Shown here piece by piece: positions 2,710 to 64,000 of a DNA stretch of 64,000 nt. Below the pieces are notes generated by a model. The model had not been told where the DNA came from. It searched no databases and saw nothing but the letters and a program-made list of their open reading frames with translations. Origin of the DNA: Eledone cirrhosa (lineage: Eukaryota); NCBI GenBank assembly GCA_964016885.1, contig OZ024745.1:38874001-38938000 (forward strand), given 5' to 3'. Positions within the stretch are counted from its first letter, which is position 1. Every line of letters starts with the position of its first letter. The position numbers and the translations under genes were made by a program.

Positions 2710-2798
2710 GACCAAGAAATACCGGGATGGCGGCCGGCGGGGAATAGCCATGTCTCTAGGGGAGAACGACCCCTCTAGTCTTGGTTGACACTCGTTCT
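2710..2798 (+). ncRNA. Candidate HDV-like self-cleaving ribozyme at the 5' end of B1
   Basis: P1 gaccaag/cttggtt with G1-U wobble, P2 agaac(g)/(c)gttct, P3 (g)ac/gt(c) closing loop ccctcta, hairpin in J1/2. P4 is absent or unclear. Confidence 0.4.
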
Positions 2799-2863
2799 AG
2801 AAGTGGTAACACGAAATGATTACCCCTTGGCGGAGAAGGATAAAACGCGACAAAATAAAGTAG

Positions 2864-5800: not shown

Positions 5801-6497
5801 GATGTTGACAAAACTTTAACCCATCAGTGGTTGGCATCCTCTGGACTGAAATCGGAGACTGAAGGACTGATTATATCCGCACAAGATCAGTGTCTGCCAA
5901 CCAAAAATTACCAAGCCAACATAATAAAAAATGGGTGCAGCCCATTATGCCGTGTATGCAAAAAACAAACAGAGACCATTGACCATATAATCTCAATGTG
6001 CAGTCCTATAGCTCCAACCGAATACCTAAACAGGCATGACAGAGCTGCACAATACAAACATTGGATAATGTGTAAGCATTTTGACCTGCCCCATCAAAAG
6101 AATTGGTGGGAGCATCAACCACCTCCCATACTTGAAAAAGATCACATCTCAATCTTGTGGAACTTTAGCATCCAAACAGACCGAAAAATAGATAATATTG
6201 AAGGACTTTCAAAGGAGGGTATGCCCGCTAATTGATATGTCTGTTCCAATAGACAAGAATGTATCTATAAAAACATTTGAAAAATTGAGCAAGTATAAGG
6301 ACCTGGAGATAGAAATTGGAAAAATGTGGAAATTGAGAACTAAAACAATACCAGTGGTTGTAGGCGCTCTGGGAATGATACCTAAGGGGTCTAACGACTA
6401 CTTATCGCAAATCCCAGGAAACCCGCGTATAGGAGAAATACAAAAGATAGTACTAATGGGAACTGCCCATATACTAAGGAAGATCCTGTCAATATAA
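2864..6497 (+). pseudogene. B1 ORF (N-terminal domain, RT, zinc knuckle, RLE) broken by TAG at 5249-5251 and a 17-nt deletion near 6190
   Basis: KSPGKD, NYRPITCL, WIDYKKAFDS, FQGDSLSPL, FYMDDLK, CRVC..ETIDHIISMC, EKLSKYKDL. B2 has TAC at the stop and retains ANRPDII where B1 is deleted. Confidence 0.9.
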
Positions 6498-6637
6498 GTA
6501 CATCACAAGTCTAAACACTAAGGATGCATGTGTGAATATGTATGTTCTTTCTTGAACATGGCGGACCTTGTTGTCTCTTGAGGTCACTGGTTGTGACTTG
6601 GTGATAACTCGTATAAACATAAAGCAAGATAAATGCA

Positions 6638-6820
<183 letters not shown>

Positions 6821-7782
6821 ACGCACGAGGTGGTAGAAGGTCATGAAATCGCTCCCGTAAGTTTTTGATTTTTAACATATTTAAATCAATTGTGAAATAA
6901 CAATTCTTAGTACAAATGTTGCATAAACCACCGAGTCAAGTCCCATAAAATTTCGGATCCATATTATATTGTTATATCGCTCAAATATTCAATGTTGTAT
7001 TATATATTTTGTATTCAAAAAAGAAAATGGTTATAAATGGAAAAAAACACCCTCTGTCTACACTATATAGAACAGCTAAATAACAGCAGTTTCACCAACA
7101 CCAGAAACTTGATACAACACCTACCCCATCACACTAAATATAACAGCCAGATAACGGCGATTTCACCACCACCACCACCAATCCCAGCATCATAATAATA
7201 ATTACTATTATTATTGTCTCAAGTTTTAACAAAATGTTTAATTCCAATTTTACGGGAATATGTCAACACAATATATATTAAACATACGCGACACACACTC
7301 ATATATACTACATATCACCAAAATCAATAACGACAACGCCACCGCCGACACCACTCCATCCATCATTGCTACCACTATCCCATCACCGCCGCCACCACTC
7401 CTTCATTGCTACCACCAATATTCCCCATTACCTTCTGTTAACTTAAGAAAGGGGAAGGTGGCGGTATCACTAGACAAGGGAGAGGCTAGCAAATGATATA
7501 AATAGATTGACCTAGTGACCCGGCCACCGGCCAAACCTCAACAACTATGAGACTGCTGGCTCCCCCCTTCCCCACCAACAATATAAAAAGCCCCAGAACC
7601 ACCACCGACATAGCCAACAACAATAACAGGCAACTTCAGCAAAAAGTATATTATATTATTGTAATGCACTGGGTAATTGCTGGCCTTGTGCCTGGAGTGG
7701 AGACAATTATTAATAATGTCATTCTTAAGCCACGCAATGCTCACATTAAGGAACCACTCATGATAATAACAATTTAAAAAAA

Positions 7783-10700
7783 CAACAAAAAAGAAAAAAC
7801 TGTGACCAAGAAATACCGGGATGGCGGCCGGCGGGGAATAGCCGTGTCTCCAGGGGAGAACGACCCCTCTAGTCTTGGTTGACAATCGTTCTAGAAGTGG
7901 TAACATGAAATGATTACCCCTTGGCGGAGAAGGATAAAACGCGACAAAATAAATTTATATGTCTAATGATAAAATCTCATACCGGATCGGCCGTCACCCG
8001 GGTAAAAAAGGGCCGCGTCCCTCAGAGAGGAACCAGACTGGGGTCGAAAAATCAGCTAATGGTTCAAACCTTCCCATCACTTCGGAGCTGGAGACCTCCC
8101 ATAACCGGAATACTCCTACTGTTGGCCCTCCATGCTCACCACCAAGAAATCCAAAGAAAAAGAGAGAAAAATGGTCAAGGGAAGATAATAAAGAAGTCCT
8201 TGAGGTTTTCTACACTGCCCAGTACTACCCATCAAATACATCGAATACAGAACAGACATATATCAACTGGAAAAAGAAACATCCCGAAAACAGAGGCTAT
8301 ATTGACAGCAACAAACTAGCCAATATACGAAGAAATATTGTAAGAAAAAAGTTACTAACTGATATAGAAATTGATCAGATCAAGCTAGTAGCACAAAGTC
8401 AGCGAAGGGAAAATGAAGCATGTGTCAGTGAAAACGAGGTAAACTGTAACACTTCGAATCCCAGGGTTGGGGCGGAATCACTGGCAACAGAACAAATTAA
8501 AGAAAGCATCGAAAAAGTGGAGGGAGTGCATGCTCAAGATGAAACTTGAAATGAAAACAATGAGATCGTAAATGATAAAGAAATGAATGAGAATGAACTT
8601 GCCAACTTGAAGGATGAAATTATGATCGAACGGATGAAAATGAAAGAATCTGACATGGGGGAACGAGACACCCTCCCTAAGATCCAGAACTCCAAACAGA
8701 ACCAACAGATAATACACAAGACTAACATAATTATCAAAAACATTATCATCACAAACAAACTAAACATTACTGATTTAAATCATCTCTATTATGCATCGGC
8801 TAAAGTCACCACTCACTTATGTGGAGTGAAGATGAAAAAACAAAGGAATTCCCACAAGAAATCTACTTGGCAAGAGAACATCAATCGCCAAATAAACCTT
8901 CTCCGATCTGACATAGAAATTTTAACAAACTATAAAGTAGGTGAACATGTTAAACAAACTAAACTTAGAAAATTGAAAAAAAAGTACAGTATAAAATCAA
9001 CAAGTGACATAGACATGCTGATAGAAATAATCAAACAAAAAGTGTCGGCCAAAGCTGCTCGTATAAGGCGCTTTGAAAAACGATCTAGATTCTATAAGGA
9101 AAATAATATGTTCAAAAACAACCAAAGAAGCTTCTACAGAAAAATTGGTAAGTCAACAATAACTGCTAAATCAATACCACCCAAGGAGGAAGTGCAAGAA
9201 TTCTGGGAAAAGATCTGGGCCGAAGAAAAAGTTCATAACATACATGCCCCATGGATAGACAGACAAATGAAAGATACAGCTCACATTGAGGAACAAATAT
9301 GGGAAATATAACAGTTGAACAGTTGCGCTTGGCTCTTACAAAAACCAGCAAGTGAAAATCCCCAGGAAAAGACAAAATACAAAACTTTTGGATAAATGCT
9401 CTCACAGAGTCTCATGAGCTGTTAGCCCAACTTTACAATGAAATAGTTAAGGAGCCAGAAAAGATACCATCATGGCTAGTTAACGGCATTACATTCCTGC
9501 TTCCGAAGAATGATGAGACAAACAATCCCAAAAATTTACAGACCGACAACTTGCTTGACCACAATGTATAACATTTTAACATCAGTCCTAACTGAATATA
9601 GATATGACCACCTGATAACAAATGACCTATTTCCCATTGAGCAGAAAGGGTGTAAACGAGGCTCATATGGCTGTAAGGATCAGCTTCTGGTTAACAAAAT
9701 GATACTGGAAGATTGTCATAATAGACACAAAAATCTATCGATTGCTTGGATAGATTATAAAAAAGCTTTCGATAGTTTGCCACACAGTTGGATTGAAAAA
9801 TGTTTAGAGATTTTCAAAATTACCCCCGTTGTCAGAATGTTTTTGTCATTCAATATGAAGACATGGAAAACGACACTCCTTTTGAATGGTGAGACAAAAT
9901 CACTGGAAGCTGGAGAATTTAATATTAATTGTGGAATTTTTCAGGGTGACTCTTTATCACCGCTTTTATTCTGCATCGCACTTATACCATTAAGTAAAAT
10001 GATCAATGAAACAAAACATGGATATAAAGTCTATGACAAAACCATTAATCACTTGTTCTACATGGATGACCTGAAACTATTTGCAAAAAATGATGAACAA
10101 GTAGCAAGTGCTACTATCCACTGTGGAGCAGTTCAGTGATGACATTAAAATGGATTTTGGACTAGATAAATGCGCCAAAGCAACGTTCACCAGAGGAAAG
10201 CTGCTGAAGACTTCAGACATTAATCTTGATCGGGGGAACGTGATAAGAGAACTTGATCAAGAAAAAACTTACAAATATCTAGGTGTTTCTGAAGGAGACG
10301 GAATCAAGCACTCGACAATGAGGGAAAGGATACGGAAAGAATGTTACCGCAGAGTTAGAGCAATCATAAGAACGGAATTGAATGCAAGGAATAGGATCGA
10401 TGCCATAAACACGCTTGCCATACCAGTAGTAACCTACAGTTACAATGTCATCAACTGGTCAAGCACAGAGATCCGTAGGCTCGATACAAAAATTCGAAGA
10501 CTCTTAACCATGCACAGAATGCATCACCCTAAGGCAGATATAGATAGAATATATCTCCCTAGGAAAGAAGGAGGACGTGGGTATCACATGATTGGATGAT
10601 CAAACTCGTTTTGAAACACGAAAGCATCAAAAGATCATATTCCATTACAAAAGATGCAATTAGATACAGTAATGGACTACAAATTTCAGAAGTCCCATTT

Positions 10701-11690
10701 ATTGCTGAAATGGAAAACACATAAAAAGCAAAGCAGGTAAAAGTAACTGCAAAGAAAGAACTGCTACATAAACTGGCTAAGAAATGGCAAGAAAAGCTTC
10801 TGTATGGAAAATACCCAGAGCGAGCTAACAATCCTGATGTTGACAAAACTTTAACCCATCAGTGGTTGGCATCCTCTGGACTGAAATCGGAGACTGAAGG
10901 ACTGATTATATCAGCACAAGATCAATGTCTGCCCACAAAAAATTACCAAGCCAACATAATAAAAAATGGATGCAGCCCATTATGCCATGTATGCAGAAAA
11001 CAACCAGAGACTATTGACCATATCATTTCAATGTGCAGTCCTATAACTCCAACCGAATACCTAAACAGGCATGACAGAGCTGCACAATACATACATTGGA
11101 TAATGTTTAGCATTTTGACCTGCCCCATCAAAAGAATTGGTGGGAGCATCAACCACCTCCCATACTTGAACAAGATCACATCTCAATCTTGTGGAACTTT
11201 AGCATCCAAACAGACCGAACAATAGATGCAAATAGACCTGATATAATATTGAAGGACTTTAAAAAGAGGGTATGCCTGCTAATTGATATGACTTTTCCAA
11301 TAGACAAGAATGTATCTATAAAAACATTTGAAAAATTGAGCAAGTATAAGGACCTGGAGATAGAAATTGGAAAAATGTGGAAATTGAGAACTAAAGCAAT
11401 ACCAGTGGTTGTAGGCGCTCTGGGAATGATTCCTAAGGGGTCTAATGATTACTTATCGCAAATCTCAGGAAACCCGCGTATAGGAGAAATACAAATGATA
11501 GTACTAATGGGAACTGCCCATATACTAAGGAAGATTCTGTCAATATAAGTACATCACAAGTCTAAACACTAAAGATGCATGTGTGAGTATGTATGTTCTT
11601 TCTTGAACATGGCGGACCTTGTTGTCTCTTGAGGTCACTGGTTGTGACTTGGTGATAACTCGTATGAACATAAAGCAAGATAAATGCAAC
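7783..11690 (+). mobile_element. R4/Dong-like RLE element, family B, copy B2 (full length, several stops and frameshifts, about 70-nt deletion near 10580)
   Basis: Colinear with B1 from 5' UTR to 3' UTR; ORF pieces 7959-11548; ends in (TAA)n. Confidence 0.92.
7804..7892 (+). ncRNA. Candidate HDV-like ribozyme at the 5' end of B2
   Basis: Same pairings as 2710-2798. Confidence 0.4.
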
Positions 11691-12148
11691 TGTAATAATA
11701 ATAATAATAATAATAATGGAAGAAATGGAAGAAATGAAAGAAAACAACAGCCAAATAATTTCCCCACCAACACCACCACATCCACCGCCCCCATCACCAC
11801 TACCACAAAAATGTAGCTACACCATCAATACAGTACTAATATACCATCACCACCGTCACCACTCTGTCATCGCTACCACCAGTATACCCTCACTACCTCC
11901 TGTTATGAGAGGGATGTTAGTAGTGCCACTACACATTACTAGAAGCTAGGAAGTCACCAAAAGATATAAATAGACTGATTTAGTGACCCGGTCAAACAGC
12001 TAACAACAACACTATAATAATTATTGTTGTTTTATCTCTAAACTCTCTCAAAATGTTTAGTTTAAACGGGGTCAAATCTAAACTATAATATAATAATTGT
12101 TTCAATATAAACAACAACAATATAAACAACAACAGCAATAAAATAATT

Positions 12149-12320
12149 GTTTCTACTTTAGGAACAAGTCCAGTGCATTGCTGGTACTTTTATTTTATCG
12201 ACCCCGTAAGGATGAAAGGCAAAGTCAACCTTGGCGGGATTTGAACTCAGATCGTAATGGGACGTAACTATGCTGGAAGTCATGGCGTCCGACCCTCTAC
12301 CGATACTACCAATCGACTAA
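12149..12320 (-). mobile_element. Octopus-type SINE
   Basis: tggtacttt..atcgaccccg.aaggatgaaaggcaaagtcaacct.ggcgggatttgaactcag (B-box-like on the minus strand); recognised from memory; related copies elsewhere in the window. Confidence 0.7.
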
Positions 12321-12869
12321 TAATAACTATAAGCAACAAGTCGACCAATTACAGAACACAGACAAAAACAAATGCATCAAGAAAAATGAAAACAAATTTC
12401 AAATGTCTGGAACGCAACAACCCGTACTTCCCACGTAGCTAAAATCAGAAACAGCCGCAGCAGCAACAACAACACTAGTAATCGATGTTACTGGCCTTGA
12501 AAAACAAAAAGGAAAAAAAAACAAAAAAAAAACAAGTCAGAAATTCAAACATTACAATGAAACTTATGTTTATTTTTTAAAGTTTTTATCTATTTATTTG
12601 TTCGTCTACAGCGCGATGGTGTATCGCGAAAATCAACGGGGGTGATGAAATCACTGGTAGTGATGAAATCACCGGTGGTTATGTAACCATACATTCACCA
12701 ATCCTCGATATGAGTTTTTTAAATGTCGAAACTAAACAGTTCGAATAACTGTGAAGAGGAGAGTGTGACGTCATGTGAAAGACTCTCACCCAGCAAGTGC
12801 TCCCTCGCCCAGCTGCAGCGACCTGGCTGTCATCCAAATACTGGTGGTGTAGGAGGAAGAAGAAGAAGG

Positions 12870-15800
12870 AAAGGGACAAGAAACAACTGGACGAAATAAT
12901 TAAATAGAACTGTTATGGAATGTTACCTGATGAGTAACCCCATGGAAAAAAGGCTATAGGAAACGGATGCATAATATCTGGAACGAGATTGGTTTATTTC
13001 AATTGGCCGGGCAGGCTCGGGTAATAAGAACTAATGGATGGATAAGCGAGTTGGAACTGGATGAACTGAGCAGAGTGATTACGTTGGAAATGGAGAGTGT
13101 AGTATGTCAAGCAAACGAGCCAGTAGGAAATTAATATGAAGAGGTTGAGTAACCTGAGGAAGCATTCGAAGCAGACAATGATCTGAATGCGTAAATAAAT
13201 ACCATCTGGAAAAAGATACGGCCATTGAGGAAATTAATGCTGACGGGCTAGAACAAGATTTGGTTGATATCCTGAACTCAGTGGTAGATGAAATGAACAA
13301 TGTTTATGGAAAAACCTATGAACCTAAGGTTTGTAGACAGGAAAAAGTAAAAAGAAACAACAGCTAAGGTAAACAAAGTCATCCCATACTTTGAGGCGAG
13401 GAACCTTCACCAATGCAACAAAATCCTCAAAGATACAGCAAATGCGGTGAGGAAATTGCTTGGCATAAAAACGAGAGGAAACAACAAACAAGAAAGATCA
13501 GAAGTTTGGTGGAAGAAACGACTGAATGGTCAAATCAAGGACATGAGAAAAGAAATTGGAAAGTTTGAGTCCCTACTGAATGGGACATTACAAAACATAG
13601 ACACTAAAAATAGACTGGAAATAAAGTACAAAACTAGGGGTGGGGATCTAAATACTATCATAGAGGAACTGAAGCAACGCATTGTAGCAAAAAGTGCAAA
13701 GATTATGCGGTAGGAGAGCAGATTCAGTCAGTATAGACAGAACCATATTTTTGACAACAACCAGAAAATGTTGTTTGGACAGCTTGAAGGGAAAGAAAGA
13801 AGCAACAACTTGACCCCTGAGGTGGAACAGACTAAGACATTCTGGAGAGCAATATGGGAGCAGGATGTTGAACATAATGATCAGTCAGTGTGGATTGAGA
13901 CAGTACAAAAGGAGATTAGTGAACAGCTACACCAACAAAATGATTTGAGTATCACAGTTTCAACTCTTAAAGAGTAGACCAAAAAACTAACCAACTGGAA
14001 ATCACCAGGCCCAGATGGTGTACAGGGGTATTGGATCAAAAACATAACATTCCTCCCCACGAAACAGACAACCATGTTCAATGACTGCTTGATGTCGGGT
14101 GAGGTACCAGAGTGGTTGACAAAATGTACCACAGTTCTGGTAATGAAAGACCGAATCAAGTGTGATGATGTTACCAACTACAGACCTATCACATGTCTGT
14201 CCGTAATGTGGAAACTGTTAACAAGCATTGTGTCTGAGGAAATCTACCATCACCTCCACCTAAACAACTTGTTACCGGACGAACAGAAGACCAGTTACTT
14301 ATTGATAAGATGGTAATGAGGAATTGCAAGAGGAGACACACTGGTCTTGGCATGAGATGGATAGATTACAAAAAAGGCATTCGACATGGTACCTCATTAT
14401 TGGATAACCAGGAGCCTAAAGTTCTTCAAGGTGGCAGATAACATCAGACAGTCGTTGAGCAAAAGTATGAAATTCTGGGAAACAGAGTTAACATCGGGAG
14501 GAGAATCCTTGGGAGGCGTGAAGATCAAATGAAGCATCTTCCAGGGAGATAGTTTGGCCCCGTCTGCTGTTTGTCCTTTCCCTGATACCCTTGTCCGTTA
14601 TATTGCGCAAAGTGAGAGCAGGATACAAGTTGGGATAGGGAGAGGTTACCATAAAACACCTCCTCTTCATGGACGATCTTAAACTCTTTGGGAAGAGTGA
14701 GAACGAGTTGGATGTAATTATTGACCCTGTCCGTATTTTCGGCAATGATATATGTATGGAATTTGGTATTAATAAGTGTGAAATCCTAGTGATGAAGAGG
14801 GGTAAATTGACAACAGAAGCAACAGAATCCAGGTAGCAACAGGTGAGATAATAAAGGAAATAGACACTGAAGAAGGATACAAATAGTTAGGTCTTCTGGA
14901 GGCAGATGGCCTCAAGAAAAATAATGAAGGAATTGATAAGATCTGAATTCATAAGGAGAGTAATGAGCGTATTAAAATCACATCCAAATAATAGGAATGT
15001 CAGAAGTGCAGTGAATTCCCGAGCTGTGTCTATTATTAGGTACAGTGCGGGAATTCTGAAATGGAATGTTGCTGAACAAAAAGAAATGGATAGGAAGACT
15101 AGGAAGCTATTGACTATCTACAGCATTCTTCACAAAAGGAGTGATGTCGATAGACTCTACTTAAAGAGATACTAAGGTGGAAGAAGTCTTATCAGCATAG
15201 AGGACTGTGTTCAGATGGAGAAAAACAACCTGCACAAAATGCGACTGACAGTAGGGAGTCAATGCACAAACTTGTACTGAAGCAGAAGACAATAGACCAG
15301 GGGATGTCCAAGGAGGACATAACAACAAGGAGGAAGAGCAAACTTCATGAAAAATTCCTTCATATTACCTTCTTTAGAACAACTGAATTTAGTGATCCAC
15401 AGACATGGAACTGGTTGAAACGAGGAGACCTTAAACAAGCTACAGAACGAATGCTAATGGCTGCGCAAGAGTAGGCTCTCAGAACGAAGTGGCTGAAACA
15501 TCATATTTACAAGGAGAAGGCTAGCCCACTGTGTAGGATCTGTGGAGAAAAAGAGGAGACTGTGGCTCATATTGTATCCGAGTGTAAACACCTAGCCCCG
15601 ACTCACTATAAAGGCTGAATACATGATGTGATAGGCAGGGTGATCCACTGGCACCCATGAAAAGTAAACAATTTACCACATTCTGAGAAGTGATATGAGC
15701 ATAAGCCAGAGTCAGTGATAGAAAACGATCAGGTGAAGTTGCTACGGGATTTTAGGATACAGACGGACAAGAAATTAGAACACAATATGCCTGACCTGGT

Positions 15801-16185
15801 GGTTTTGGACAAGGAAACAAGATCGTGCCTGATTGTAGATGTAGCCTGCCCATTTGACACGAGATAGCAAGGAAAGAAGAGGGAGGAAATTAAGCGATAC
15901 CAGGACTTAAAATGGGAGGTAAAAAGGATTTGAACTGCCATGAAATCATGGTCGTTCCGATTCTCATAGGTGCACTAGGTACTATCTCAAAGAGTTTCCA
16001 AGGATGGTTAAAGAAGATCAGTCCAGCCCCGGTTTATGGAACACTTCAAAAGGCATGCTTTCTGGGAACAGCAAGAACCCTCCGATACGTCCTGAATATC
16101 CGAGGCTGCAGGCAGCGGCTTGATATTCATGTCAACAAACTTTCCAGTTAAATAACATCAACGACTGAGACTCAACGAATAACTA
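12870..16185 (+). mobile_element. R4/Dong-like RLE element, family A, copy A2 (heavily decayed; 5' UTR may extend to about 12600)
   Basis: Colinear with 1-2621 and contains the segment missing from A1 (WKSPGPDGV, NYRPITCL); same 3' UTR. Confidence 0.88.
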
Positions 16186-16265
16186 TAATAAAAGAAGGAC
16201 GATTTCTTAAGCCTTCATTACCCTTATTGATTGGTGATGCGCGTTTCGCTATTAGTCTGTTAAAA

Positions 16266-17933: not shown

Positions 17934-17991
<58 letters not shown>

Positions 17992-17993
17992 TG

Positions 17994-18210
17994 TTAAAAT
18001 AACAGATTAAAGTTTAAGCAAAGCATCGCTGCTTTCACCCTTAACGGGATTTTCTGAAACAAAAGGCTGAAAGGGTGAAAGCAGCGATTCTTTGCTTAAA
18101 CTTTAATCTGTTATTTTAATAAATATTTGCTCTAGGGTTCTTATATATTTGATATATATTTATCCTTATCGAGCCCTACTTGGATTTTAGTCTTCATATT
18201 TATTATTATT
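17994..18210. mobile_element. Fold-back element with about 57-bp arms carrying a hammerhead 3' half, in (TA)n
   Basis: 17994-18052 is the reverse complement of 18070-18119 region; minus arm reads aagggt-GAAA-gca-gcga-tgc-TT. Confidence 0.7.
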
Positions 18211-18639: not shown

Positions 18640-19755
18640 GGTCGGGATTGCGCATGTCTGCGCTTCTCCCACCAGGTTTTCGATGACAAACGCCAGCTTC
18701 TTTGCCAACCCATCGGCCAAAATCTGTAACTCTGTGTTGAGCAGAGTTATGGGCCGGAAGTTACCTACGTCATCCCCCTTGTTCTCGTCCTTCCTGACTA
18801 ACATGATTACGCCCTTGGTCACAGAACTGGGAATTCTCCCGTTCTGCTGCCAGTTGCAGTAAACCGCTTCCAGGAGACCGGAGAACAAGTCCGGCACTGC
18901 TACGTAAAATTCGTAGGGTAGACCGTCGAGACCTGGAGATTTGCGTTTGCCGCATTGGCTCATCGCGTACCCTATCTCAGCGGCCGAAATCGGCCTTTCG
19001 CAGAACTGTGCCTCGCTGTCCGAGAGTCGCGGTAGGCCGTCGCGGTATGAACCGAAACTCATCGCCCCTCCCGGCGCGCAGCCCTGCCCGAACAGTTAAG
19101 CAAAGTGTCGCTGAAAGGCCGCGCACATTTGCTTCGGCTCACGTATCACGCGTCCGTCTTGGTCTTTCAAAGACCGAATCGTGGACATGTTGCCACTTTT
19201 CGCCTCCGTTACTCGGGCCCAACTAACTGCTTTGGCTCCCTCGTTTCCCAGAGTACGTATTTTGCTTCTGACAACGCAGCCTTCATGCTTTCCGTCGAAC
19301 AACCAGTCCAAGGCCGTTCCCGTCGCTAGCATGCTGGCTACATGGCCACTCCTAAGTGCCTCTTCTACATTATCTACCAGTTCCTTTTCAGTCTTATTTC
19401 TATCTAACACCAATTATTTACTGAAACCTTTCGAGTCTAATCTAACTGCCCTCTTGAGAGAGTACCACCATCTGTTGTTGACGATGGCCCCCGTCAAGTG
19501 CTGCTTAACTAAAGTGCTAATCCGTCTACTGTAGGCTTTGCATGTCGGTAACGATAAGTACAGCTTCCTGTAGCCGGGTCCCTGCATATGGGTTTTGTCA
19601 AGGTTGACTAAGCAGGTCACTAATTTGTGATCTGAATAGGCAACCGTGAACATTTGTGGACAGCTTAACATGTCCCTATCCTTCTGTCTAACTATAACCC
19701 TATCTAGGTACGATCTAGATGTTCCGCGACGATTAGTCCACGTCCACAGTGGCAT
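18640..19755 (-). mobile_element. Tx1/L1-clade LINE ORF2 fragment (end of APE endonuclease to start of RT)
   Basis: WTW...SYLDRV...SDHK and [13 protein letters not shown]...[14 protein letters not shown]; in-frame stops; bounded by (TA)n on both sides. Confidence 0.85.
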
Positions 19756-19767
19756 ATATATATATAT

Positions 19768-19810
<43 letters not shown>

Positions 19811-19828
19811 ATACATTTACACACACAC

Positions 19829-19913
<85 letters not shown>

Positions 19914-20038
19914 AAGTTAATTTAAATTGTTGGGATACAACAAGCAAATATTTTTATAACTGATATAAAGCACTCAACAAATATTTGGAGTAAAAATACG
20001 ATATTAATAAATGGAAATTATATTTATAAAACCATATT

Positions 20039-20103
20039 TATTTCATTATACATATTTCAAGGACACCAAGTTAAATTATGGTGTGCTTTCATCAGATAAA
20101 ATA
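20039..20103 (-). ncRNA. Type I hammerhead ribozyme motif
   Basis: Reverse complement of 20438-20502 with intact core. Confidence 0.8.
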
Positions 20104-20437
20104 TGATATAGAACAGTTTTATAAATAAATATTGACATACCCTTAAAGAATGCAATAGTGGAGTTGTAGCTTTAGTTAAGTAAGTCAGTATTGGATATTT
20201 TAAAAATAAGCCGTTGGGTTATGGAGACAGAGAAAGATAGAGAAGGAAAGAGAGAGAAAGAGCAGAACAACTTCTCTATATTTCTCTGTCTCCATAACCC
20301 AACTGCTTATTTTTAAAAATACCCAATACTAACTTACTTAACTAAAGCTACAACTCCACTGTCCGGGAGCTTCCAACAGTAATGCTTGCATTAGTTAAGG
20401 GTATGTCAATATTTATTTATAAAACTGTTCTATATTA

Positions 20438-20502
20438 TATTTTATCTGATGAAAGCACACCATAATTTAACTTGGTGTCCTTGAAATATGTATAATGAAA
20501 TA
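20438..20502 (+). ncRNA. Type I hammerhead ribozyme motif (minimal stem III)
   Basis: tattttat-CTGATGA-aagcacacca(loop)tggtgtcctt-GAAA-tatgta-TA-atgaaata; stems I and II pair. Confidence 0.82.
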
Positions 20503-20541
20503 AATATGGTTGTATAAATATAGTTTCCATTTATTAATATC

Positions 20542-20592
<51 letters not shown>

Positions 20593-25674: not shown

Positions 25675-26276
<602 letters not shown>

Positions 26277-26300
26277 TATATGTATATACATATATATATA

Positions 26301-27405
<1,105 letters not shown>

Positions 27406-27653
27406 CGTTTCTGAATTTGTTTAGCAAGATCCTTTATCTGAAATCGTGTGTTGAAACCGATATTGTTATACTTTGGGAGGGTCATGTTGCCAATAAGAAA
27501 CACACGCACCAGTGCTTTCAATTCAATTTATTATATATTTATTAATTTATAAATTTACAAATCTACAAACTTAAACAGGCTTAAACAGGCAAAGCTAAAT
27601 CGGGATACTATAGAGTATACCAATAGATATCCCACAAAATTGACAGTATCAAT

Positions 27654-30600
27654 ATGGCCGACACCTCATTATCAGAAGAGTTCAACAACAAAAATACCAA
27701 CATTTATGGGAACACGGAAATAGATAATAATGAAATGTCTGTGTTATGTCTGCCGTCCAAATTTGCGACATTCAAGAAGGTAAATATGATTAGTTGTCTG
27801 TCAGAAATAGAAAAATCATTTACAAAACTACGCTGGAGCATCAAAAACAAAAGCAACAATATACGCACACACATATACAACACACATCCCAACAACAACA
27901 GACACACAGACACAAACAACAATAACAACAACACACACATCAACAACAACAACAATAGCAACATACCCAGATACAACAACAACAAACACGCAGACACAAA
28001 CAACAATAACAACACACACAACAACGATAACACACACGGAGACAACAACACACATCAACAACATCACACATCAACAACAACAACACACACGCATTCAATG
28101 CCTCTCACCACCACCACAATCTTAACAAACACACAGACACAGAAAACAAGTAATGACAGTAGCACAGAAATCAGAGAAATAAGGGAAAGTAATAGGATTA
28201 AAAGGAAAAGGAGATGGGAGACTAAGGACAAAGAGAATAACCAAGACGAACACACAGACACACAAAATAGGGTAGATAACAACATTGAGCCAGTGGAAAG
28301 AGACAGGAGTAATTATGAGAGACATAGAAACAACCATGAGGCTGTTGGTGGAAATAGAAATAGAAACAACACAACTAACAATAACAATAGCACTAGTACA
28401 CATAAAGCAGCAGCCTGGAACTCTCCGTTTTATAATCCCTCCGATAAATCATTCGACCTGCGACGAGTCCACGCCACGACTTTGCCATTTAACAAACGCA
28501 CGCAGTTGCCGTCGCAGGTCGATGAACAAACAGAAGCACAATTTAGTATAGCTAAATCCGAACTTAGAAATATTATAGAACAGTATAGCAAGAAGCATAA
28601 TAGAATAGAGGCCCAGCAACTGGGAGAAAGATCTGCAAATGGCTTGCGTAAGCTCATGCAGCGCTCGCGTAATGGAGAGATAGCATGCTTTCCAACAGAC
28701 AAGTCTGGCAGAATGTCGGTTGACAGCCTGCCAAACTACATCCAGGCAATGCAATCCCACATCACTAACACAAGAGAGGTAACGCCACAGGAGCATGAGG
28801 ATAGAGAAAAAGCCCTCAATGCCCATATGGTGATGTGGACGAATATAATGCAGCCCAACAAAAGGACTGCCAACAACTTCCAGGCCTGGAACAAAGACGT
28901 GCCGGCGTTGTATGGGCTTCGAAAAGACCATAAAATGGGCTGGGACCCTGTCGCGGGACCACCAACACGACCAGTCTGTGGAGCTAACATTGCTAGTAAC
29001 TACAGACTGTCCTACTTCCTCTCCCTGATCATACGCCCCATCATTGAGATGTCCCCAGATGTATGTGACAGCACGGAGGACCTCCTCAGCAGAATCGACG
29101 CGGGTAACCGATCTGGGGACCTAACAAACTGCATAATAGGCAGTATGGATGTTGTGTCCCTGTATCCATCTATTCACGTGGATTTTGCTGTGGAGAAATG
29201 CGTAGAAATGATCAGAGAGAGCAAGGTTGAGTTCGGTGGGATTGATACCAGTGAGCTGGGACTTCTACTTAAGCTTACCCATAGTAATAGTTACCTAGAC
29301 ACTTATGACCTTAGCAGCCTGTGCCCTACAAGACCAGCAAGAGGCAGACCACCTACCATTACCTCAATTGCCAAGAAAACCCACACAGATAGATGGAACG
29401 GGTGGACCAGAGCCATACGAGAGCCATACGCACACCCGAAAACCACGATGAACTGAAGAAAATGATTGCACATGCGGTAGGGGCCAGCCCAAAATTAACC
29501 CTTAAGGAACATATGTTCAAATTTAATGGTAAAACATATGCCCAAGAGGAAGGAGCAGCCATTGGTGTTAGCATTGCAGGCGACATAGTAACTTATTCAT
29601 GGTATGGCGGGACAGTAGACTTAAACAAAAACTTAAAGAACAATTAGAAGACAGCTTAACCCTGATAATGTACTCCCGCTACGTAGATGATATAAACATC
29701 GTAGTTAAGACACCCCCACTAAAGAACAGTCAGGAACTAGAGAAAAACACAATGGAAAGCATCCAGCAAATAGCAAACTCCATCCACCAGAGATTTAGAG
29801 TTACTGTAGACTAACCAAGTAGACACCCCAACCATCGATTACCTGTACTAGATACAGAGCTCTGGTTAGATACCATTAACAACCAAAAACAAATCCACCA
29901 TTCCCATTATGCCAAACCCATGACTTCCAAACATCTGATCCACCGAAACTCGGCCATTTCGGACCATACCAAAATCAACATACTGATTGCGGATTTGGTA
30001 CGGGTGATGAGAAATGTGTCCCGCATGTGCAACCCCGGAGAACTAGAGAGACACATACAACACTTCATCCACCGTATGCAGTTCTCTGGCTACAATCAGA
30101 GAGATAGAATCAGAGTGTATAAAGGAGCCAGAACCAAATGGTAAATAATGGTAAATAATGACATAAATGGGACCTGCCCCTTGTATAGGAGCACATTTTG
30201 GAATAGAATAGAAAGAACTAGGAACAAGGCCAATAGAATAAACTCATGGTATGATAGCAATAAATACCAGAGTGTAATGTTCATCAATACAAACCCTAGA
30301 GGCGAACTAGCCTACAAATTTAGAAGGGCCCTAAATAGACATAAACTCAATATTAAGATAGTAGAAAGACCAGGTACCTCTGCAAAAACACTTATTAGCA
30401 AGACATACCCGTTCCAAAGACCCTCATGTATAGATAAGAAATGTATAACCTGTAAAATAAGCCCCCATATTAACTGTAAAACTAGAAATGTAGTGTATAG
30501 CATAAGATGTACTGAAGGACAATGTAGAAACAAAAATATAGTGTACATAGGTGAGACAGCTCGTAGTATAGGGGAACGAATAAATGAACACTGGCGAGAC

Positions 30601-30790
30601 CTCCAAGATAATAAAGAATCATCTGTGCTCTACCAACATGCTAAGATAGAACACAGGGTAGATTAGAGAACATAGAAATAAAAATAGAATCCACACACAG
30701 AAAAGATGCAATGTTTAGGCAAATTACAGAGGCAGTAAGCATAAAAGAACTACAACCAAAATTAAATAGAAAATATGAGTGGAACAGCAA
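27654..30790 (+). pseudogene. PLE RT + GIY-YIG endonuclease ORF with frameshifts and stops
   Basis: PTDKSG, LYGLRKDHK, TRPV, SMDVVSLYPSI, QEEGAAIG, RYVDDI, Cys linker CIDKKCITC..C, NVVYSIRC...VYIGETARSIGERINEH. Confidence 0.9.
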
Positions 30791-30998
30791 CATCACAACT
30801 TACAATTAAGGACAACATGAAAACACACACAGGACAAAATGAAAACACACACACACATAGAACAAACAACTTACAATTAAGGACAAAATGAAAACACACA
30901 CAGGACAAAATGAAAACACACACACACATAGAACAAACAACCAACCAACAATAAATAAATAAACAAATAGATAAATGAACACAAACACACACAGACAC

Positions 30999-31056
30999 CC
31001 GGATGTGGCGCATGCGCAAACTGAGCACACACCACACACACAGAAACAAAATGGCG
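30999..31056 (+). promoter_or_regulatory. Candidate pLTR promoter motifs (ETS-like, NRF1-like, YY1-like)
   Basis: ccggatgt, gcgcatgcgca and aaaatggcg just upstream of the hammerhead; aagatggcg in the 44 kb copies. Confidence 0.35.
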
Positions 31057-31102
31057 TAGGATAGAAGAAAGGAAAGGCACAGAAACAAAGAAAGGAATCC
31101 AC

Positions 31103-31147
31103 AGTCACTGAAGAGGTCACATAGTGTGTGACGAAAGGACTATGACT
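31103..31147 (+). ncRNA. Minimal type I hammerhead in the PLE pLTR
   Basis: agtca-CTGAAGA-g-gtcaca(tagtg)tgtgac-GAAA-ggac-TA-tgact. Confidence 0.75.
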
Positions 31148-31430
31148 ATATATAAACAACTATCTGGTTGTGGAACCAACCAACCAACCAGAAATGTATA
31201 AGTTTGTAGATTTGTAAATTTATAAATTTATAAATATATAATAAATTGAAGTGAAAGCACTGGTGCGTGTGTTTCTTATTGGCAACATGACCCTCCCAAA
31301 GTATAACAATATATATATATATATATACTGTATATATATACAAATATATATACATACATATGTGTATACATTATATATATATACACACACATACACACAC
31401 AGACCCACACATATATATATACACACACAC

Positions 31431-33163: not shown

Positions 33164-33751
33164 TTATTGACAGGTTAATTGTATAAAGGATTTTAAAAAA
33201 CCACCCGATTGAGAACTTATTCGATTTGTGCTATTTATGCAATGTTTTGAATGATATACACTTACTGAATTCTTTTGCCAAAATCTGGGGTAATTTCCCC
33301 TCGTGTTTTCCACACGTGGTTTAACTTGCCTCTGTGTCACTCACACATTTAGTACGGAGCAAAATACCTGTTGATAATGTGATATTCCTGGTTCGATCAT
33401 TATACCTAAAGCTTATATTTTTAAGCAGACAGTACTTAGATTTAGGTGTCTTAGAAACCATGCATTGGATTTTAACATACATTTCAAGGTGTCCAGGTCT
33501 GGTTTTATTATTTATTTTTTTCATTTATTTTGTTTTGACCTGTTTAGCTTGATTTGATTGTTAGTTAGGTGGTTGATATTTTCTTGACCACTTTTTTAGT
33601 TTTGTATGGCTTCTTAACATATTGTTTAGCTCTGATTTTAACTATTGAGCACTTTGCCAGTGTCATTTCTGATTTTTGAGTTTCGTTTCACCTATCCTAC
33701 TCGCCGAAATGCGATTCTCGCTGAATCAATATATCTCTCTCTCTATATATA

Positions 33752-35180
33752 TACGATATTAACAAATGGAAACTATATTTATAAAATAATATTTATTTCA
33801 TTATACATATTTCAAGGACACCAAGTTAAATTATGGTGTGCTTTCATTAGATAAAATATAATACAGAGCAGTTTTATAAATAAATATTGACATCCCCTTA
33901 AAGAATGCAACCATTACTGTTGGAAGCTCCCGGATAGTTGAGTTATATCTTTAATTATATTATTAGGTAAGTTGGTATTGGATATTTTTAAATAAGCCGT
34001 TGGGTTACGGAGAAAGAGAAAGAGAGAGAAAGAGCAGAACAACAGAGAGAAAAATGAGAGAGAGAAAGGAGAAAGAGAAAGGAGAGAGAGAGAAAACTCT
34101 AAGTCATATCTTGTTGAGTTATCTTAACATTTGAGATGAAATGAATAAATAAAATTAGAAATGTTAATAATCATGAATGGAATATACATATATAATATGA
34201 GAAATTTAACCATTATTTAAATATGATTAAATGTTTAGTTAATCAGTTAAATATTGAGATCAATACATTAAAAATTAGGATCTATATATTAAGAAATCTA
34301 TATATTATTATTAAGACTATATTATTAAAAATCTATATATTGTATAACACATATATACACGCACAAATACATACATATAAATATATATACACACGTATAA
34401 AAATATATATACATATATATGCTACGTATAAACATATATATACATATATATACTACGTATATAATATATACATACAACATATAAAGGATTCTTTCATTTA
34501 AGATATAGGAATCTTATAAAATCAGAGAAAGTCATTTCAATGTAATATCAAAGCAGCGTGAGGGAAAATGATGTTATTTAGTTATATCAATGTTACAATT
34601 GTTAAGATATTAAATGAAATGTTATGTTATACACACGTTATGTTATTAAACACATTTTTTCGTGTTTTATATAATAAGTTTTAGAAGATTACCTGTTATG
34701 TATTTATGACTGTTATTATATGTCTATTTGTCACGAATCTTTGGATAATCCCTATAAATAAGTGCAATCGAATTGTATGGATATACATATATATATACAT
34801 ACACAATTCCCACATATACATACATTTCTCTTTCTCCGTAACGCAACGGCTTATTTAAAAATATCCAATACTAACTTACCTAATAATATAATTAAAGATA
34901 TAACTCCACTATCCGGGAGCTTCCAACAGTAATGGTTGCATTCTTTAAGGGTATGTCAATATGTATTTATAAAACTGCTCTATATTATAATTTATCTGAT
35001 GAAAGCACACCATAATGTAACTTGGTGTCCTTGAAATATGTATAATGAAATAAATATGGTTTTATAAATATAGTTTCCATTTGTTAATATCGTATTTTTA
35101 CTCCAATTATTTGTTGAGTGCTTTATATCAGTTATAAGAATAGTTGCTTGTTGTATCCCAACAATTTAAATAGAACTTTT
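33752..35180. mobile_element. Second copy of the 19912 family: inverted arms (33752-34025 / 34825-35095) around about 800 nt of AT-rich spacer
   Basis: Direct sequence comparison; hammerhead in both arms (minus copy has CTAATGA). Confidence 0.85.
34988..35052 (+). ncRNA. Type I hammerhead ribozyme motif
   Basis: tttat-CTGATGA-aagcacacca...tggtgtcctt-GAAA-tatgta-TA-atgaaa. Confidence 0.78.
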
Positions 35181-35314: not shown

Positions 35315-35393
<79 letters not shown>

Positions 35394-35397
<4 letters not shown>

Positions 35398-36063
35398 AGT
35401 ATGTATACATATATGTGTACAGACGTAGAGTAGTATGTATATATATACATACATGCACACATATATATATATATATATGTACGCATGGATTCACCAAACA
35501 TTTACTATAATGCTCGGTGTGTTTGTAAACAAACATCCCGTATGAAGCCGCAGTGTCTAGCAACCTCCGTTGCTCGTTTGTTCAACACTGACAAAGGAAC
35601 GCTGTACTAGTTTCAATCTGGTTAGCTATCGCCAGCAACGTATACCTTCCAGCCAGATTTTTGAACGTCCGAAAGTATACACTTTCCTTATGCATATTAA
35701 CGGCTGAGTAGTCCAATTTGTATATCGAGTGTGTTAATCGGCCGGGTGCACCGAAAACGATAAACGGAAAAAAATGAAACGATATTTTCGGTGCACCGGG
35801 CCTATTAACCCACTCACTATGCACATTGGGATACTCAGCCGCTAATATGCATAAGGAAAGTATATACTTTCGTATGTTCAACAATCTGGCAGGAAGGTAT
35901 ACGTTGCTGACGATAGTTAACAAGCTTGAAACTAGTACAGCGTCTCTTTGTCAGCGTTGAACAAACGAGCAACGGTGGTTGCTAGACACTGCGGCTTTAT
36001 ACGGGATGTTTGTTTACAAACACACCGAGCATTATAATAACTGTTTGGTGAATCCATACGTAC

Positions 36064-36094
<31 letters not shown>

Positions 36095-36222
36095 CATGTA
36101 TGTATATATGTATACATACTACTGTACGTCTGTATACATATATGTATGTACGTATACATACTTATCTTTAAGTAAGGGCCGTACTAAGAGTGGGAAATGA
36201 AATTTCGTTTCATTTTTTCCGT
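35394..36222. mobile_element. Retrozyme-like fold-back element, about 445-nt monomer (35785-36222) plus an inverted junction-spanning arm
   Basis: 35394-35757 is the reverse complement of 35785-36163; the centre 35760-35782 is the reverse complement of the monomer 3' end (36205-36222). Confidence 0.82.
35901..35943 (+). ncRNA. Minimal type I hammerhead with palindromic stem III
   Basis: acgttg-CTGACGA-tagttaacaagctt-GAAA-ctag-TA-cagcgt; stem II is weak. Confidence 0.7.
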
Positions 36223-36473
36223 ATATATATATATATATACAATGTATATATATATTGATTCGTTGCAATTATATCGTTGCAAATTCGAATATATTCATTA
36301 AGTATGAAAATTGTCTTTCGGATAATAATTAGATTAGAGTGAGGCGATGTGTTTTTCTGAATTTTAGTTTTTCAGTAGTTAATTATTCCTTGAACTTTTC
36401 ACATTTTAAACTGCAGCTAACATTACTAATAAATATTACACGAAGAAGCATGCTTACAAAGGAAATAAAAAAT

Positions 36474-40590: not shown

Positions 40591-40593
<3 letters not shown>

Positions 40594-40783
40594 GGAACAC
40601 GTAAGACCCCGACGGCTGAGCTCAAGCCGTTTCGACGGCTAATTCTGACAGAATTATCCGTCGAAACGGCTTGAGGTCAGCCTTCGGGGTCTTACTTGTT
40701 CCTATTACCCACTCTACTACCCTAAGTATTGAGTACTTTGGTGCGTTATGGTCCACCTGGTTCCTTACCACATTTCCTTCGTT
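40591..40783. mobile_element. Fold-back element whose axis is hammerhead stem II, in (TA)n
   Basis: gacggctaattctg-ac-agaattatccgtc-GAAA-cggct(tgagctc)agccg-TC-ggggtc; the CTGATGA half is replaced by the inverted arm. Confidence 0.78.
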
Positions 40784-43640: not shown

Positions 43641-43643
<3 letters not shown>

Positions 43644-44356
43644 AACCAAACGGAAATTTATAAATTCCTAAATTTATAAATTTATTATAATAAACTGAAG
43701 TGAAATTTCTGGTGCGTGTGTTTCTTATTGGCAACATGACCCTCCCAAAGTATAACAATATATATATATACATATATATTGTTATACTTTGGGAGTGTCA
43801 TGTTGCCAATAAGAAACACACGCACAAGCAGATTTCACTTCAGTTTATTATAATAAATTTATAAATTTAGGAATTTATAAATTTCCGGTTGGTTGGTTGG
43901 TTCCACAATCATATGATTGCTTATATATTGTCAAAGTTCTTTCGTCACACATTCTGTGAACGCTTCAGTGACTGAGATTCTTTTTTTGTTTTTGTGCCTC
44001 TCATTTGTTCTGTCCTACGCCATCTTGTTTTTGAGTGTGACACACAAAAACAAGATGGCGTAGGACAGAACAAAGGAGATGCACAAAAACAAAGAAAAGA
44101 ATCCCAGTCACTGAAGAGTTCACAGAATGTGTGACGAAAGAACTTTGGCAATATACAAACAATCATCTGGTTGTGGAACCAACCAACCGGAATTTTATAA
44201 ATTCCTAAATTTATAAATTTATTATAATAAATTGAAGTGAAAGCAACTGGTGCGTGTGTTTCTTATTGGCAACATAACCCTCCCAAAGTATAACAATAAC
44301 GGTTTCAACACACGTTTTCAGATAAATAATCTTTTTAAACTTATTCAGAACGAAAT
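43641..44356. mobile_element. ORF-less triple (+/-/+) array of pLTR fragments of the 27.4-31.3 kb Penelope family; hammerheads at 44106-44150 (+) and about 43929-43973 (-)
   Basis: High similarity to 31040-31310 and 27404-27560; palindrome axes near 43768 (TA) and 44038. Confidence 0.87.
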
Positions 44357-45854: not shown

Positions 45855-46073
45855 ACACATGCATGCACACACGTTCATATATTATCTTAAATCATGAAGC
45901 TGCACTTTTGACCTGAGTGTCGATGAAACGGTGCTCATTAAAGGTTCTATATTTTAGATTAAGGGCAAAATACTTACACACACATATATATATATATATA
46001 TATGTGTATGTGTGTGTGTGTGTAAGTATATATATATATATATATATATATGTGTATGTGTGTGTGTGTGTAA

Positions 46074-46164
<91 letters not shown>

Positions 46165-46296
46165 TCTTTTGCCCTTAATCTAAAATATAGAAGCTTTAAT
46201 GAGCACGCTTTTACACGAAACCTATGACCGACCATCAGATCAAATATGCAGCTTCATGATTTAATAGAATATATGAACGTGTGTGTATGCATGTGT
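45855..46296. mobile_element. Tail-to-tail inverted pair with degenerate hammerheads around a (TA)n core
   Basis: 45855-45976 is the reverse complement of 46161-46296; consensus tttgat-CTGATG.-...-GAAA-gcgtgc-TC-attaaa. Confidence 0.65.
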
Positions 46297-46443
46297 TCTG
46301 CCAAATACAGTCAGAAAGTATAGAAAACCTTCCTATGTCACAGATCGGTGTACTCAATTCTGGTGTATGGGCTTAATCATTAGAATATGGGACAAAATGC
46401 TTCTGCGGCATAACATCATGGACATTATGTTCTAATTCAACCT

Positions 46444-46649
46444 TCTGGCAGGAAGGTATACGTTGCTGACGATAGCTAATAAGCGTGAAACTAGTACAGC
46501 CTTCCTTTGTCAGTGTTGAACAAATGAGCAACGATGGTTGCTAGACACTGTACGGCTTAATTCGGGAGGTTTGTTTACAAACACACCGAGCATTATAATA
46601 AATGTTCGGTGAATCCATACGTACATGTATATATGTGTGCATGTATGTA

Positions 46650-46691
<42 letters not shown>

Positions 46692-46795
46692 TACTACTGT
46701 ACGTCTGTATGCATATATGTATGTACGTATACATACTTATATTTAAGTAACAGCCGTACTAAGAGTGAGAAATGAAATTTCGTTTCATTTTTTCC

Positions 46796-46800
<5 letters not shown>
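46444..46800 (+). mobile_element. Third, 5'-truncated copy of the 445-nt family with a hammerhead at 46460-46502
   Basis: acgttg-CTGACGA-tagctaataagcgt-GAAA-ctag-TA-cagc; colinear with 35885-36222. Confidence 0.82.
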
Positions 46801-46881
<81 letters not shown>

Positions 46882-51889: not shown

Positions 51890-52790
51890 CACAGGACAAT
51901 TTCCAATTTCCGTATGACCTGAATTTGATCAGAATTTTCCATTGAATGGAGTTATCTAAGAGTTCGGCCTCACGATCAGCATAAAAAAGACCAACATCTT
52001 AAAACTTCACATAACTTGGTTCCAGCAACTCTAGCAACCTCACTCTGTACATCGAGCTGAACTTAAGGATTGGCAAAGCATCAGCAGAAATGGCCCGCCT
52101 GTCAAGGTGGGTGTGAGAAAACTCCATGCTAACCATCAAGACACGGATCAAAATGTACTAAGCCTGCGTGCTGAGTACCCTACTGTATGGAAGCTAGGCT
52201 TGGACTCCATACTCCGGCCAAGAACGCAGGCACAACACCTTTCAAGTACCCTGCGTCGATAGGATCCTCGGCATTTCATGGCAGGATCACGTCCCTAACA
52301 AATATATCTTAGTACGGAGAGGAACTCCCATCATGGTTGCTCTGCTGACAAAGAGACGCCTGCGTTGGCGTGGCCATGTTAGCCGCATACAGGTTCGCAG
52401 AATACCCAAAGGCATTTTGTATCACGAGCCTACCTCTGGCTCCAGACGCACAGGAAGGCCCATACTCCGTTATAAAGATGTATGCAAGCGGGACCTCAAG
52501 CCGGGTGGTATCGCAGCAGCAGGCCTTGAAGCGATGGCAGCTGACCGCAGCAGCTGGCAACTTGCTATAAAGGAGGCTATTAAGACATCAAGGAGGCCAT
52601 TAAGAGCACGGGAGAGAGGAGCATTGTGAAAAAATGAAGAGAACGCAGACGTCAGATAGTAGAGTCAGCGCCTTCGACGACACCGTCTTCACATGCAGCA
52701 ACTGTAACAGGACCTGCCGTTCACCGATTGGATCCTACAACCACAGACGGCGCTGCAGTTCTATCACAGACTGACCTCCATGGCACAATC
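51890..52790 (+). mobile_element. RTE-clade LINE 3' remnant
   Basis: ELNLRIGKAS..MARL, TRIKMY*ACVLSTLLYG, RRLRWRGHV.R....RIPK.ILY.E...G.R..GRP.LRYKD.CKRDLK, C-terminal CSNCNRTCRS.IG..NH...C. Confidence 0.85.
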
Positions 52791-62230: not shown

Positions 62231-62551
62231 TGTAGTTTAACCATCGTCTCAGTCTGTTTGGCCTTTTGACTTATGTTGTTGCTGTAGTTCACTAGCTTCT
62301 TTGCAGTGCTTGCCACACATCTCGGAAGTTGTCTTTCGCTAATTTCCAATAGCCGAAATAAGATTCTCGCTAATTTATATTTATATATAAATATATATAA
62401 ATTTAAATTTATATTTATACATAAATATAAATTAGCGAGAATCGTATTTCGGCTATTGGAGATGTGTGGCAAGCACTGCAAAGAAGCTAGTGAACTAGAG
62501 TAACAACATAAGTCAAAAGGCCAAACACACTGAGGCGATGGTTAAACTACA
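62231..62551. repeat. Fold-back element with about 150-bp arms; partial third copy at 61805-61912
   Basis: 62231-62380 is the reverse complement of 62412-62551, with a 22-nt indel. Confidence 0.8.
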
Positions 62552-62573: not shown

Positions 62574-63688
<1,115 letters not shown>

Positions 63689-63828
63689 TTTTGAGTTTAT
63701 GTTGGTTGTATACATCAGTATGCAGTCTGGAGCACTCGACGAAGTGCGCAGGTTGGTTTGGTTACTCCGGTGTAGTGTAAAATAAAGTTAATTAAAAGTC
63801 AAATGATTAAAATTTAGCTTCGTTTATT

Positions 63829-63883: not shown

Positions 63884-64000
63884 TTGAATTAGTATGGTAT
63901 AGACAAGTACATATGTTGTTGAGGTGTATAATATTTTCAATACTCTGAGATCAGAGTATTGACAATATTATACACCTCAACAATATATGTACTTGTCTAT

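Follow-up and report, generated by a model that had tools for sequence, protein, structure and literature searches.

An inverted pair of 444-nt hammerhead-bearing units with the marks of a Penelope-like insertion in Eledone cirrhosa, probably belonging to the non-LTR retrozymes

Introduction

Insertions of Penelope-like elements (PLEs), as described in the portions of the literature available to us, include partial tandems, inverted 5'-truncated copies, a tail at one end, and microsatellite targets (PMC8557442; PMC3846280). A PLE protein studied in vitro cleaves the two strands of its target and extends both, with reverse transcription starting from two internal sites that bound the tail, and the hammerhead ribozyme of an anole PLE is assisted by protein, its cleavage being dispensable for insertion in vitro (PMC11167929, available sections). 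Pairs of hammerheads lying on opposite strands, 100–700 bp apart, have also been reported in PLEs (PMC4209133).

Retrozymes, whose expression yields linear and circular monomers (PMC7229834), have been proposed, from co-occurrence and phylogeny, to be derivatives of PLE pseudo-LTRs (Li, Clavereau and Pollet 2026, bioRxiv 2026.07.22.740005); a word search of the accessible text of that preprint found neither the word "tail" nor inverted insertions. The same text reports no cutting in 8 of 9 tested dimer hammerheads of Xenopus. In the axolotl, HHR_Amex1, whose helix III consists of one base pair and a palindromic tetraloop, showed 6% cleavage as a monomer, and HHR_Amex2, whose helix II has a U-U mismatch at its base, showed 22%; both cut far better as dimers (PMC7229834, available sections).

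Here we describe a unit with a period of 444 nt that is present in three copies in the window, that is, the whole 64-kb stretch of Eledone cirrhosa DNA analysed. It shares with endonuclease-bearing PLEs 5' truncation, an inverted 5'-truncated copy next to it, a one-sided tail, a microsatellite target, and a hammerhead in a terminal repeat. Unlike PLEs as these are presented in the accessible text of Craig et al. 2021, Arkhipova et al. 2013 and Frangieh et al. 2024, the unit has no ORF, its period is 444 nt instead of 3–4 kb, its tail measures 57–61 nt compared with the published 30–40 bp (PMC8557442), and the tail runs directly into the unit start. With the metazoan non-LTR retrozymes, going by the available description (PMC7229834), it shares a non-coding unit within the 150–450-nt range, a GC content under 50%, and a type I hammerhead of canonical size, and with non-LTR retrozymes more broadly (PMC7229834; bioRxiv 10.64898/2026.07.22.740005) an apparently head-to-tail template and co-occurrence with PLEs. 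Unlike retrozymes as described there, the window contains an inverted pair and a truncated monomer instead of a direct tandem array, the genomic ends do not coincide with the predicted cut but lie about 285 nt downstream of it, and the element is known from DNA alone. The kind of element is therefore not a new one; the one point added here is an arm copied across the tail-to-head join.

An inverted pair and a third copy

A BLAST search of the window with the right arm of the pair returned the left arm (35757–35390; 88% identity over 378 nt, E 5e-138) and a third copy (46436–46800; 365 nt at 87%, E 3e-128); beyond these, the 64 kb gave no further full copy or full direct tandem of the unit. The three copies occupy 35395–35782 on the minus strand, and 35785–36222 and 46436–46801 on the plus strand, the first two forming an 830-nt near-palindrome, a head-to-head pair at a TA target in microsatellite-rich, animal-type DNA (Table 1). 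A sequence-only reading of this DNA had proposed a permuted monomer of about 445 nt in three copies, one of them at 46444–46800; all of this held, with the period set at 444 nt and the bounds of the third copy at 46436–46801.

Table 1. Coordinates of the inverted pair, its hammerheads and target runs, and the third copy (positions within the window)
Feature	Position	Strand	Description
Left (TA)n target run	35384–35397		Within a longer microsatellite that follows the hammerhead-bearing repeat copy 34821–35180
Left inverted arm	35395–35757	-	Flush end in (TA)n, no tail; 88% to right arm
Left-arm hammerhead, damaged	35599–35641	-	A6 replaced by G in the core; stem II with one mismatch
Hairpin centre	35758–35784	-	Last ~19–26 nt of the tail and 6-nt spacer, joined to unit start
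Right arm	35785–36222	+	438 nt of the 444-nt unit; GC 37%; contains no credible ORF
Long interrupted stem I with hammerhead at its tip	35876–35962	+	Stem I, with bulges, reaches 23 pairs; -20.5 kcal/mol for this fold
Predicted type I hammerhead	35901–35943	+	Core from 35907; stem I of 6 bp; stem II at 35914–35927 on a U-U base; palindrome 35931–35936
Internal TA/TG microsatellite of the unit	36063–36120	+	Length differs from copy to copy
Tail, 57–61 nt	36166–36222	+	Present in right arm and third copy, lacking in left arm
Right (TA)n target run	36222–36239		Outer end of the pair
Third copy, 5'-truncated	46436–46801	+	Tail present; 3' end in (TA)n; hammerhead core at 46466

At the hairpin centre, read on the minus strand, 35764–35782 corresponds to the last bases of the unit (36205–36222 in the right arm and 46780–46797 in the third copy), and is followed by a 6-nt spacer and then by the 13-mer that opens the right arm at 35785. 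The 28-nt loop aligns to the end of the third copy at 24 of 26 positions (score 40) and to the end of the right arm at 20 of 22 (score 32), the latter score being reached by none of 5000 letter shuffles, although the best shuffle scored 31, a thin margin that is due to a T run. These alignments uphold the earlier proposal that the centre contains the reverse complement of the monomer 3' end joined to its 5' start. The period follows as 438 + 6 = 444 nt, with 37% GC, and the third copy extends 4 nt into the spacer letters. About 25 nt of the second unit are present at the tail-to-head join, which was observed once, in one arm; a 6-nt motif occurs on either side of this join, and about four bases, judged by eye, are common to both sides of the head-to-head turn.

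No ORF for reverse transcriptase (RT) and GIY-YIG endonuclease is present in the arms; only two chance frames, of 122 and 149 aa, overlap them, and the 122-aa frame gave no Pfam match. Compared with the third copy, the two arms have 11 changes in common, five of which are listed family variants. Over about 190 columns, end gaps left out, they also carry private changes, 6 on one arm and 9 on the other, and one site differs in all three copies. The combination of common and private changes indicates that the arms belong to one subfamily and have aged in place.

Signature of a Penelope-like insertion

The left arm ends flush with (TA)n, the right arm runs 57–61 nt further to its own (TA)n, and (TA)n is found at both outer ends of the pair as well as at the 3' end of the third copy. 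The inverted partner, the one-sided tail, and the (TA)n target together identify the hairpin as a PLE insertion, a point that the sequence-only reading had missed, and we regard it as almost certainly an ordinary PLE-type insertion product of this genome. In all eight other palindromes that we picked from a self-comparison of the window and measured, too, one arm directly abuts a TA run, and four of them clearly extend on one side only, by 56, 77, 85 and 92 nt. Among nine tails tested, however, only that of the 444-nt unit recurs at its own hairpin centre. A rule by which the loop belongs to the tail-less arm was considered and dropped: it is true for this pair and, judged by eye, false for two other palindrome families of the window, C and E.

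A decayed RT/GIY-YIG PLE lies 4 kb away, at 27410–31330, with RT-like motifs in broken frames (identified by eye) and a GIY-YIG domain with a Pfam E of 3e-4, just under the cut-off. The element has Atlas matches of 0.96–0.97, some of them to clusters in which 11–27% of the members contain GIY-YIG, and carries an inverted 5' copy of its repeat. It also shows a Cys-rich linker ahead of the GIY-YIG domain, an arrangement that we take to be Neptune-like, and a hammerhead at 31108. Its first ORF includes a long Asn/Thr/His-rich stretch, resembling the N-rich inserts described in the available part of PMC3846280. The family at 43641–44355 is the terminal repeat of this element, here as three pieces whose orientation alternates; a hammerhead lies at 44111, and a tail of 56 nt is present on one side only. 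The 444-nt unit gave no alignment to the window's own PLE repeat, and against the window's other repeats it scored no better than shuffles in eight of nine comparisons, the ninth giving 26 against 25.

Several other palindromes of the window carry hammerhead cores, and at least five unrelated hammerhead-bearing families are found within the 64 kb. One repeat family (19911–20545, 33729–34033 and 34821–35180) has a hammerhead core with a long stem II (20446, 20095 and 34996) and an 85-nt tail, and the hairpin insertion sits in the TA run that ends its 34821 copy. Head-to-head repeats at 25769–26181, 62753–63160, 63334–63700 and 63878 have cores at 25985, 63319 and 63878 and tails of about 90 nt. 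Palindromes beside TA runs in which our scans found no hammerhead core are located at 17953–18200, 26296–26733, 40591–40783, 62231–62551, 45855–46296 and 63899–64000, that at 45855–46296 being joined via a TA run and not head to head. The window further contains, at 1–16200, non-LTR retrotransposons beside (TAA)n runs, presumably R4/Dong-like and bearing both RT and a restriction-like endonuclease motif, among them two 96%-identical copies in tandem (2668–6667 and 7760–11717) and two copies of a second family, as well as fragments of other LINE-type reverse transcriptase genes at 18760–19806, split by a long TA microsatellite, and at 52198–52629.

A predicted dimer-type hammerhead

The palindrome ACTAGT is present in all three copies (35931–35936, 35606–35611 and 46490–46495). 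As stem III, ACUAGU would provide one pair and a palindromic tetraloop in a monomer and six pairs between two motifs, so that our pair tables bear out the earlier claim of a dimer-type hammerhead whose stem III is this palindrome only. In the right arm, stem I comprises 6 pairs and stem II 4 pairs on a U-U base, and an internal loop of 3x1 together with a loop 2 of 4 nt could offer a loop 1–loop 2 tertiary contact; the U-U, in place of a G10.1-C11.1 pair, is found at the base of stem II in all three copies. The predicted cut we take, from standard hammerhead numbering, to fall after GUA at 35937. The left-arm hammerhead is damaged (Table 1) and that of the third copy has mismatches in stems I and II, and the motif looks intact in the right arm only. 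On its predicted anatomy, the right-arm motif is a canonical dimer-type animal type I hammerhead.

Hammerhead assignment here is based on a pattern scan and pair tables and not on Rfam, which listed no hammerhead among 144 matches at E≤1 over the whole window, the one match at E≤10 within 271 nt not being a hammerhead either. The scan for a core with paired stems found 7 loci in the window, compared with 0–2 in each of 20 shuffles, and recovered the right arm only among the three unit copies. Computed pair probabilities for the right arm are near 1 in the distal stem parts, 0.41–0.55 in proximal stem I, and about 0.2 in stem II; given these values, the predicted ground state of this copy is a fold other than the hammerhead. 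Because the two arms lie on opposite strands, they could not form a hammerhead dimer together, and a transcript through the hairpin would contain one sense ribozyme and would be expected to fold as a long duplex.

The motif resembles the PLE min-HHR, as defined in the available text of Cervera and de la Pena 2014 (PMC4209133), in its palindromic 15.2–16.2 region, dimer architecture, and opposite-strand pairs. That ribozyme, however, has a tiny or absent helix III, a helix II of 7–8 bp, a helix I of 4–5 bp, an extra base after A9, and G10.1-C11.1, and with a helix I of 6 bp, a helix II of 4 bp and a U-U base, the 444-nt unit falls outside this definition; the word "minimal", used in the sequence-only reading, was not borne out. 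By the features described in the accessible text of PMC7229834, the unit combines the weak helix III of HHR_Amex1 with the U-U base of HHR_Amex2 in a single ribozyme.

Copies in sequencing data

In a run search, 20 of the 23 runs listed contain part of the unit and none contains half of its words. We compared four runs with the right arm: X1 and X21 (organism A), X4 (organism B), and X19 (RNA). The family is present at high copy in organism A, with 3028 contigs in X1 and 30,318 of 12,467,656 raw RAD reads in X21, and was found in 7 contigs of X4. The RNA contig set X19, from another sample, yielded 0 contigs with the family; contigs cannot reveal circles. In X1, the window's letters at 35817 and 35824 have zero depth; lacking these two private letters, X1 does not include the window's very copy, so the data come from a relative or from another individual. 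Pattern scans for additional copies gave 0 and 0 loci in metagenome contigs, 0 in genome contigs, and 3 and 1 in viral contigs, all of the latter being 16–18-nt chance matches without flanking similarity.

The reads resolve stem II, for which the sequence-only reading had asked for a family consensus: C at 35917 accounts for 99% of the X1 depth and 97–98% of the X21 reads, giving AGCT/AGCT, and the pairing is kept. Position 35921, in the stem II loop, is variable. Variants of the U-U base and of the core do not occur among the 40 of 66 rows listed; about 1.5 core variants would be expected by a rough count, so that their absence among these rows carries little weight.

Fifteen variable places are listed in 35876–35962, of which 7 are unpaired, 4 keep their pair when changing alone, and 4 make up two couples in stem I that keep pairing only when both members change. 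In the plus-mate reads of X21, G at 35904 (84%) and T at 35940 (93%), and likewise T at 35894 (63%) and G at 35948 (89%), would keep the pair if the changes are joint. The X1 frequencies, 8% against 36% within the couple 35904/35940 and 0.02% against 15% within 35894/35948, disagree with those of X21, and stem I covariation, coming from unphased reads, is suggestive only.

Four opposite-strand joints are listed in the reads, each with different breakpoints, from a search that covered the 5' two thirds of the unit, the 3' third including the tail being skipped as a repeat. Within the part covered, where a tail-to-head join would not appear, no go-back joint is listed. One X1 contig flips strand at the 5' edge of the compared stretch, where up to 48 letters are unseen, and is neutral with respect to the join. 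A steep drop in depth at the 5' end of the unit was rejected as a measure of the truncation rate because about 9 private right-arm changes are located there. Some RAD reads of X21 are dominated by a divergent subfamily, with U at core position 7 and other sequence behind 35965 (10,202 reads), which implies that the family has at least two old branches.

Discussion

The unit is best read as a hammerhead-bearing pseudo-LTR followed by a tail, and its sequence features make membership in the non-LTR retrozymes probable. For the family as a whole, we consider it reasonably likely that it is an ORF-less, 444-nt, non-autonomous PLE derivative of the non-LTR-retrozyme type, mobilised in trans. In the mechanism that we infer, the unit RNA would be head to tail, as a multimer or a circle, and a PLE RT/GIY-YIG protein would act in trans, nicking both strands of a (TA)n run. 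Two cDNAs would then start about 60 nt apart, at the tail end for the right arm and the third copy and further in for the left arm, and would become joined head to head via a few bases of microhomology. On its way, the left cDNA would pass over the ribozyme site, still uncut, and over the unit start before entering the tail of the preceding unit, generating the hairpin centre. A left cDNA that ran from the unit start into the previous tail implies that the units of its template followed one another head to tail and left no space for an ORF, and we hold it very probable that the left-arm template had this arrangement.

In the same scheme, two hammerheads paired through ACUAGU would, as a dimer, cleave multimers down to single units. 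Dimer dependence of this ribozyme is likely by analogy; the earlier inference that activity would need tandem transcripts nevertheless goes too far, given the monomer cleavage, protein assistance, and dispensable cleavage in published hammerheads. The hairpin could also have arisen by self-priming on antisense RNA, a route proposed in the available part of PMC3846280, and near-symmetric centres would fit this too. Here the loop is part of the short arm, in families C and E of the long one, so that no single rule is favoured. More tentatively, the template may have been a 444-nt circular RNA that the PLE protein copied from the PLE's own two internal starts, each cDNA making about one lap and both passing the uncut ribozyme site. 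Of the 444 nt, 438 are covered by the right arm, and the left arm spans about nine-tenths of a unit; neither exceeds one lap, and this limit, on the basis of two arms, fits a circle.

The chief competing explanation, which we judge possible though rather unlikely, is that the copies are stumps of an ordinary autonomous PLE of 3–4 kb, ending in its 3' pseudo-LTR and absent from the window, and that the join was a one-off, produced by a template jump at insertion or inherited from a single partial-tandem source locus. 5'-truncated PLE ends with inverted partners are indeed common, as far as the accessible text of PMC8557442 describes them, family A in the window bears exactly such a relation to its long element, the join was observed once, and the 6-nt motif that flanks it could guide a jump. 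Yet the right arm ends 6 nt before the full 444-nt period and the third copy enters the spacer, as would be expected with the join in the template, and ORF-like upstream sequence is absent from all three unit copies.

The near-palindrome could in principle owe nothing to a PLE. A satellite or retrozyme unit might have spread by a non-PLE route, the hairpin being a later DNA fold-back or an assembly artefact, which we consider highly improbable: although a DNA fold-back would likewise give two arms of one subfamily, a copy cannot outgrow its template, and here the tail is on the right arm and a 5' extension on the left, an asymmetry equalled in unrelated families of the window. Microsatellite-rich DNA is hard to assemble, but arms that differ by 12%, with private changes on both, are not a collapsed or mirrored read. 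Still less probable, to the point of being scarcely credible, is a fold-back DNA transposon or MITE with long terminal inverted repeats and an incidental hammerhead match. An 830-nt near-palindrome in a TA target would suit such an element, whereas its unequal ends, the solo 5'-truncated copy, the variable inversion points in the reads, and a hammerhead complete in its anatomy, long stem I included, would not.

Four unit motifs of 12–14 nt, searched for in published full text, led to one unrelated paper. They were not found in the two of three PMC4209133 supplements covered, and gave one chance match, inside an ORF, in a file of PMC8557442. As far as these texts and files go, the high-copy hammerhead family is provisionally undescribed.

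The locus itself is decayed mobile DNA. Returning to the reading that we prefer, a PLE derivative of the retrozyme type, the insertions of this family unite a retrozyme feature, the short head-to-tail unit, with PLE features, namely the tail, the inversion, and the TA target. The ribozyme of the unit, with two weakening features, offers a clean test of dimer or protein dependence. On the proposed mobilisation of animal retrozymes by PLE proteins, and on the question of a circular template, the family provides a test case as well. In the cited literature, so far as available to us, the link between PLEs and retrozymes has been supported by co-occurrence and phylogeny only; if the circular template were true, these insertions would be direct genomic evidence that PLE enzymes mobilise retrozyme circles.
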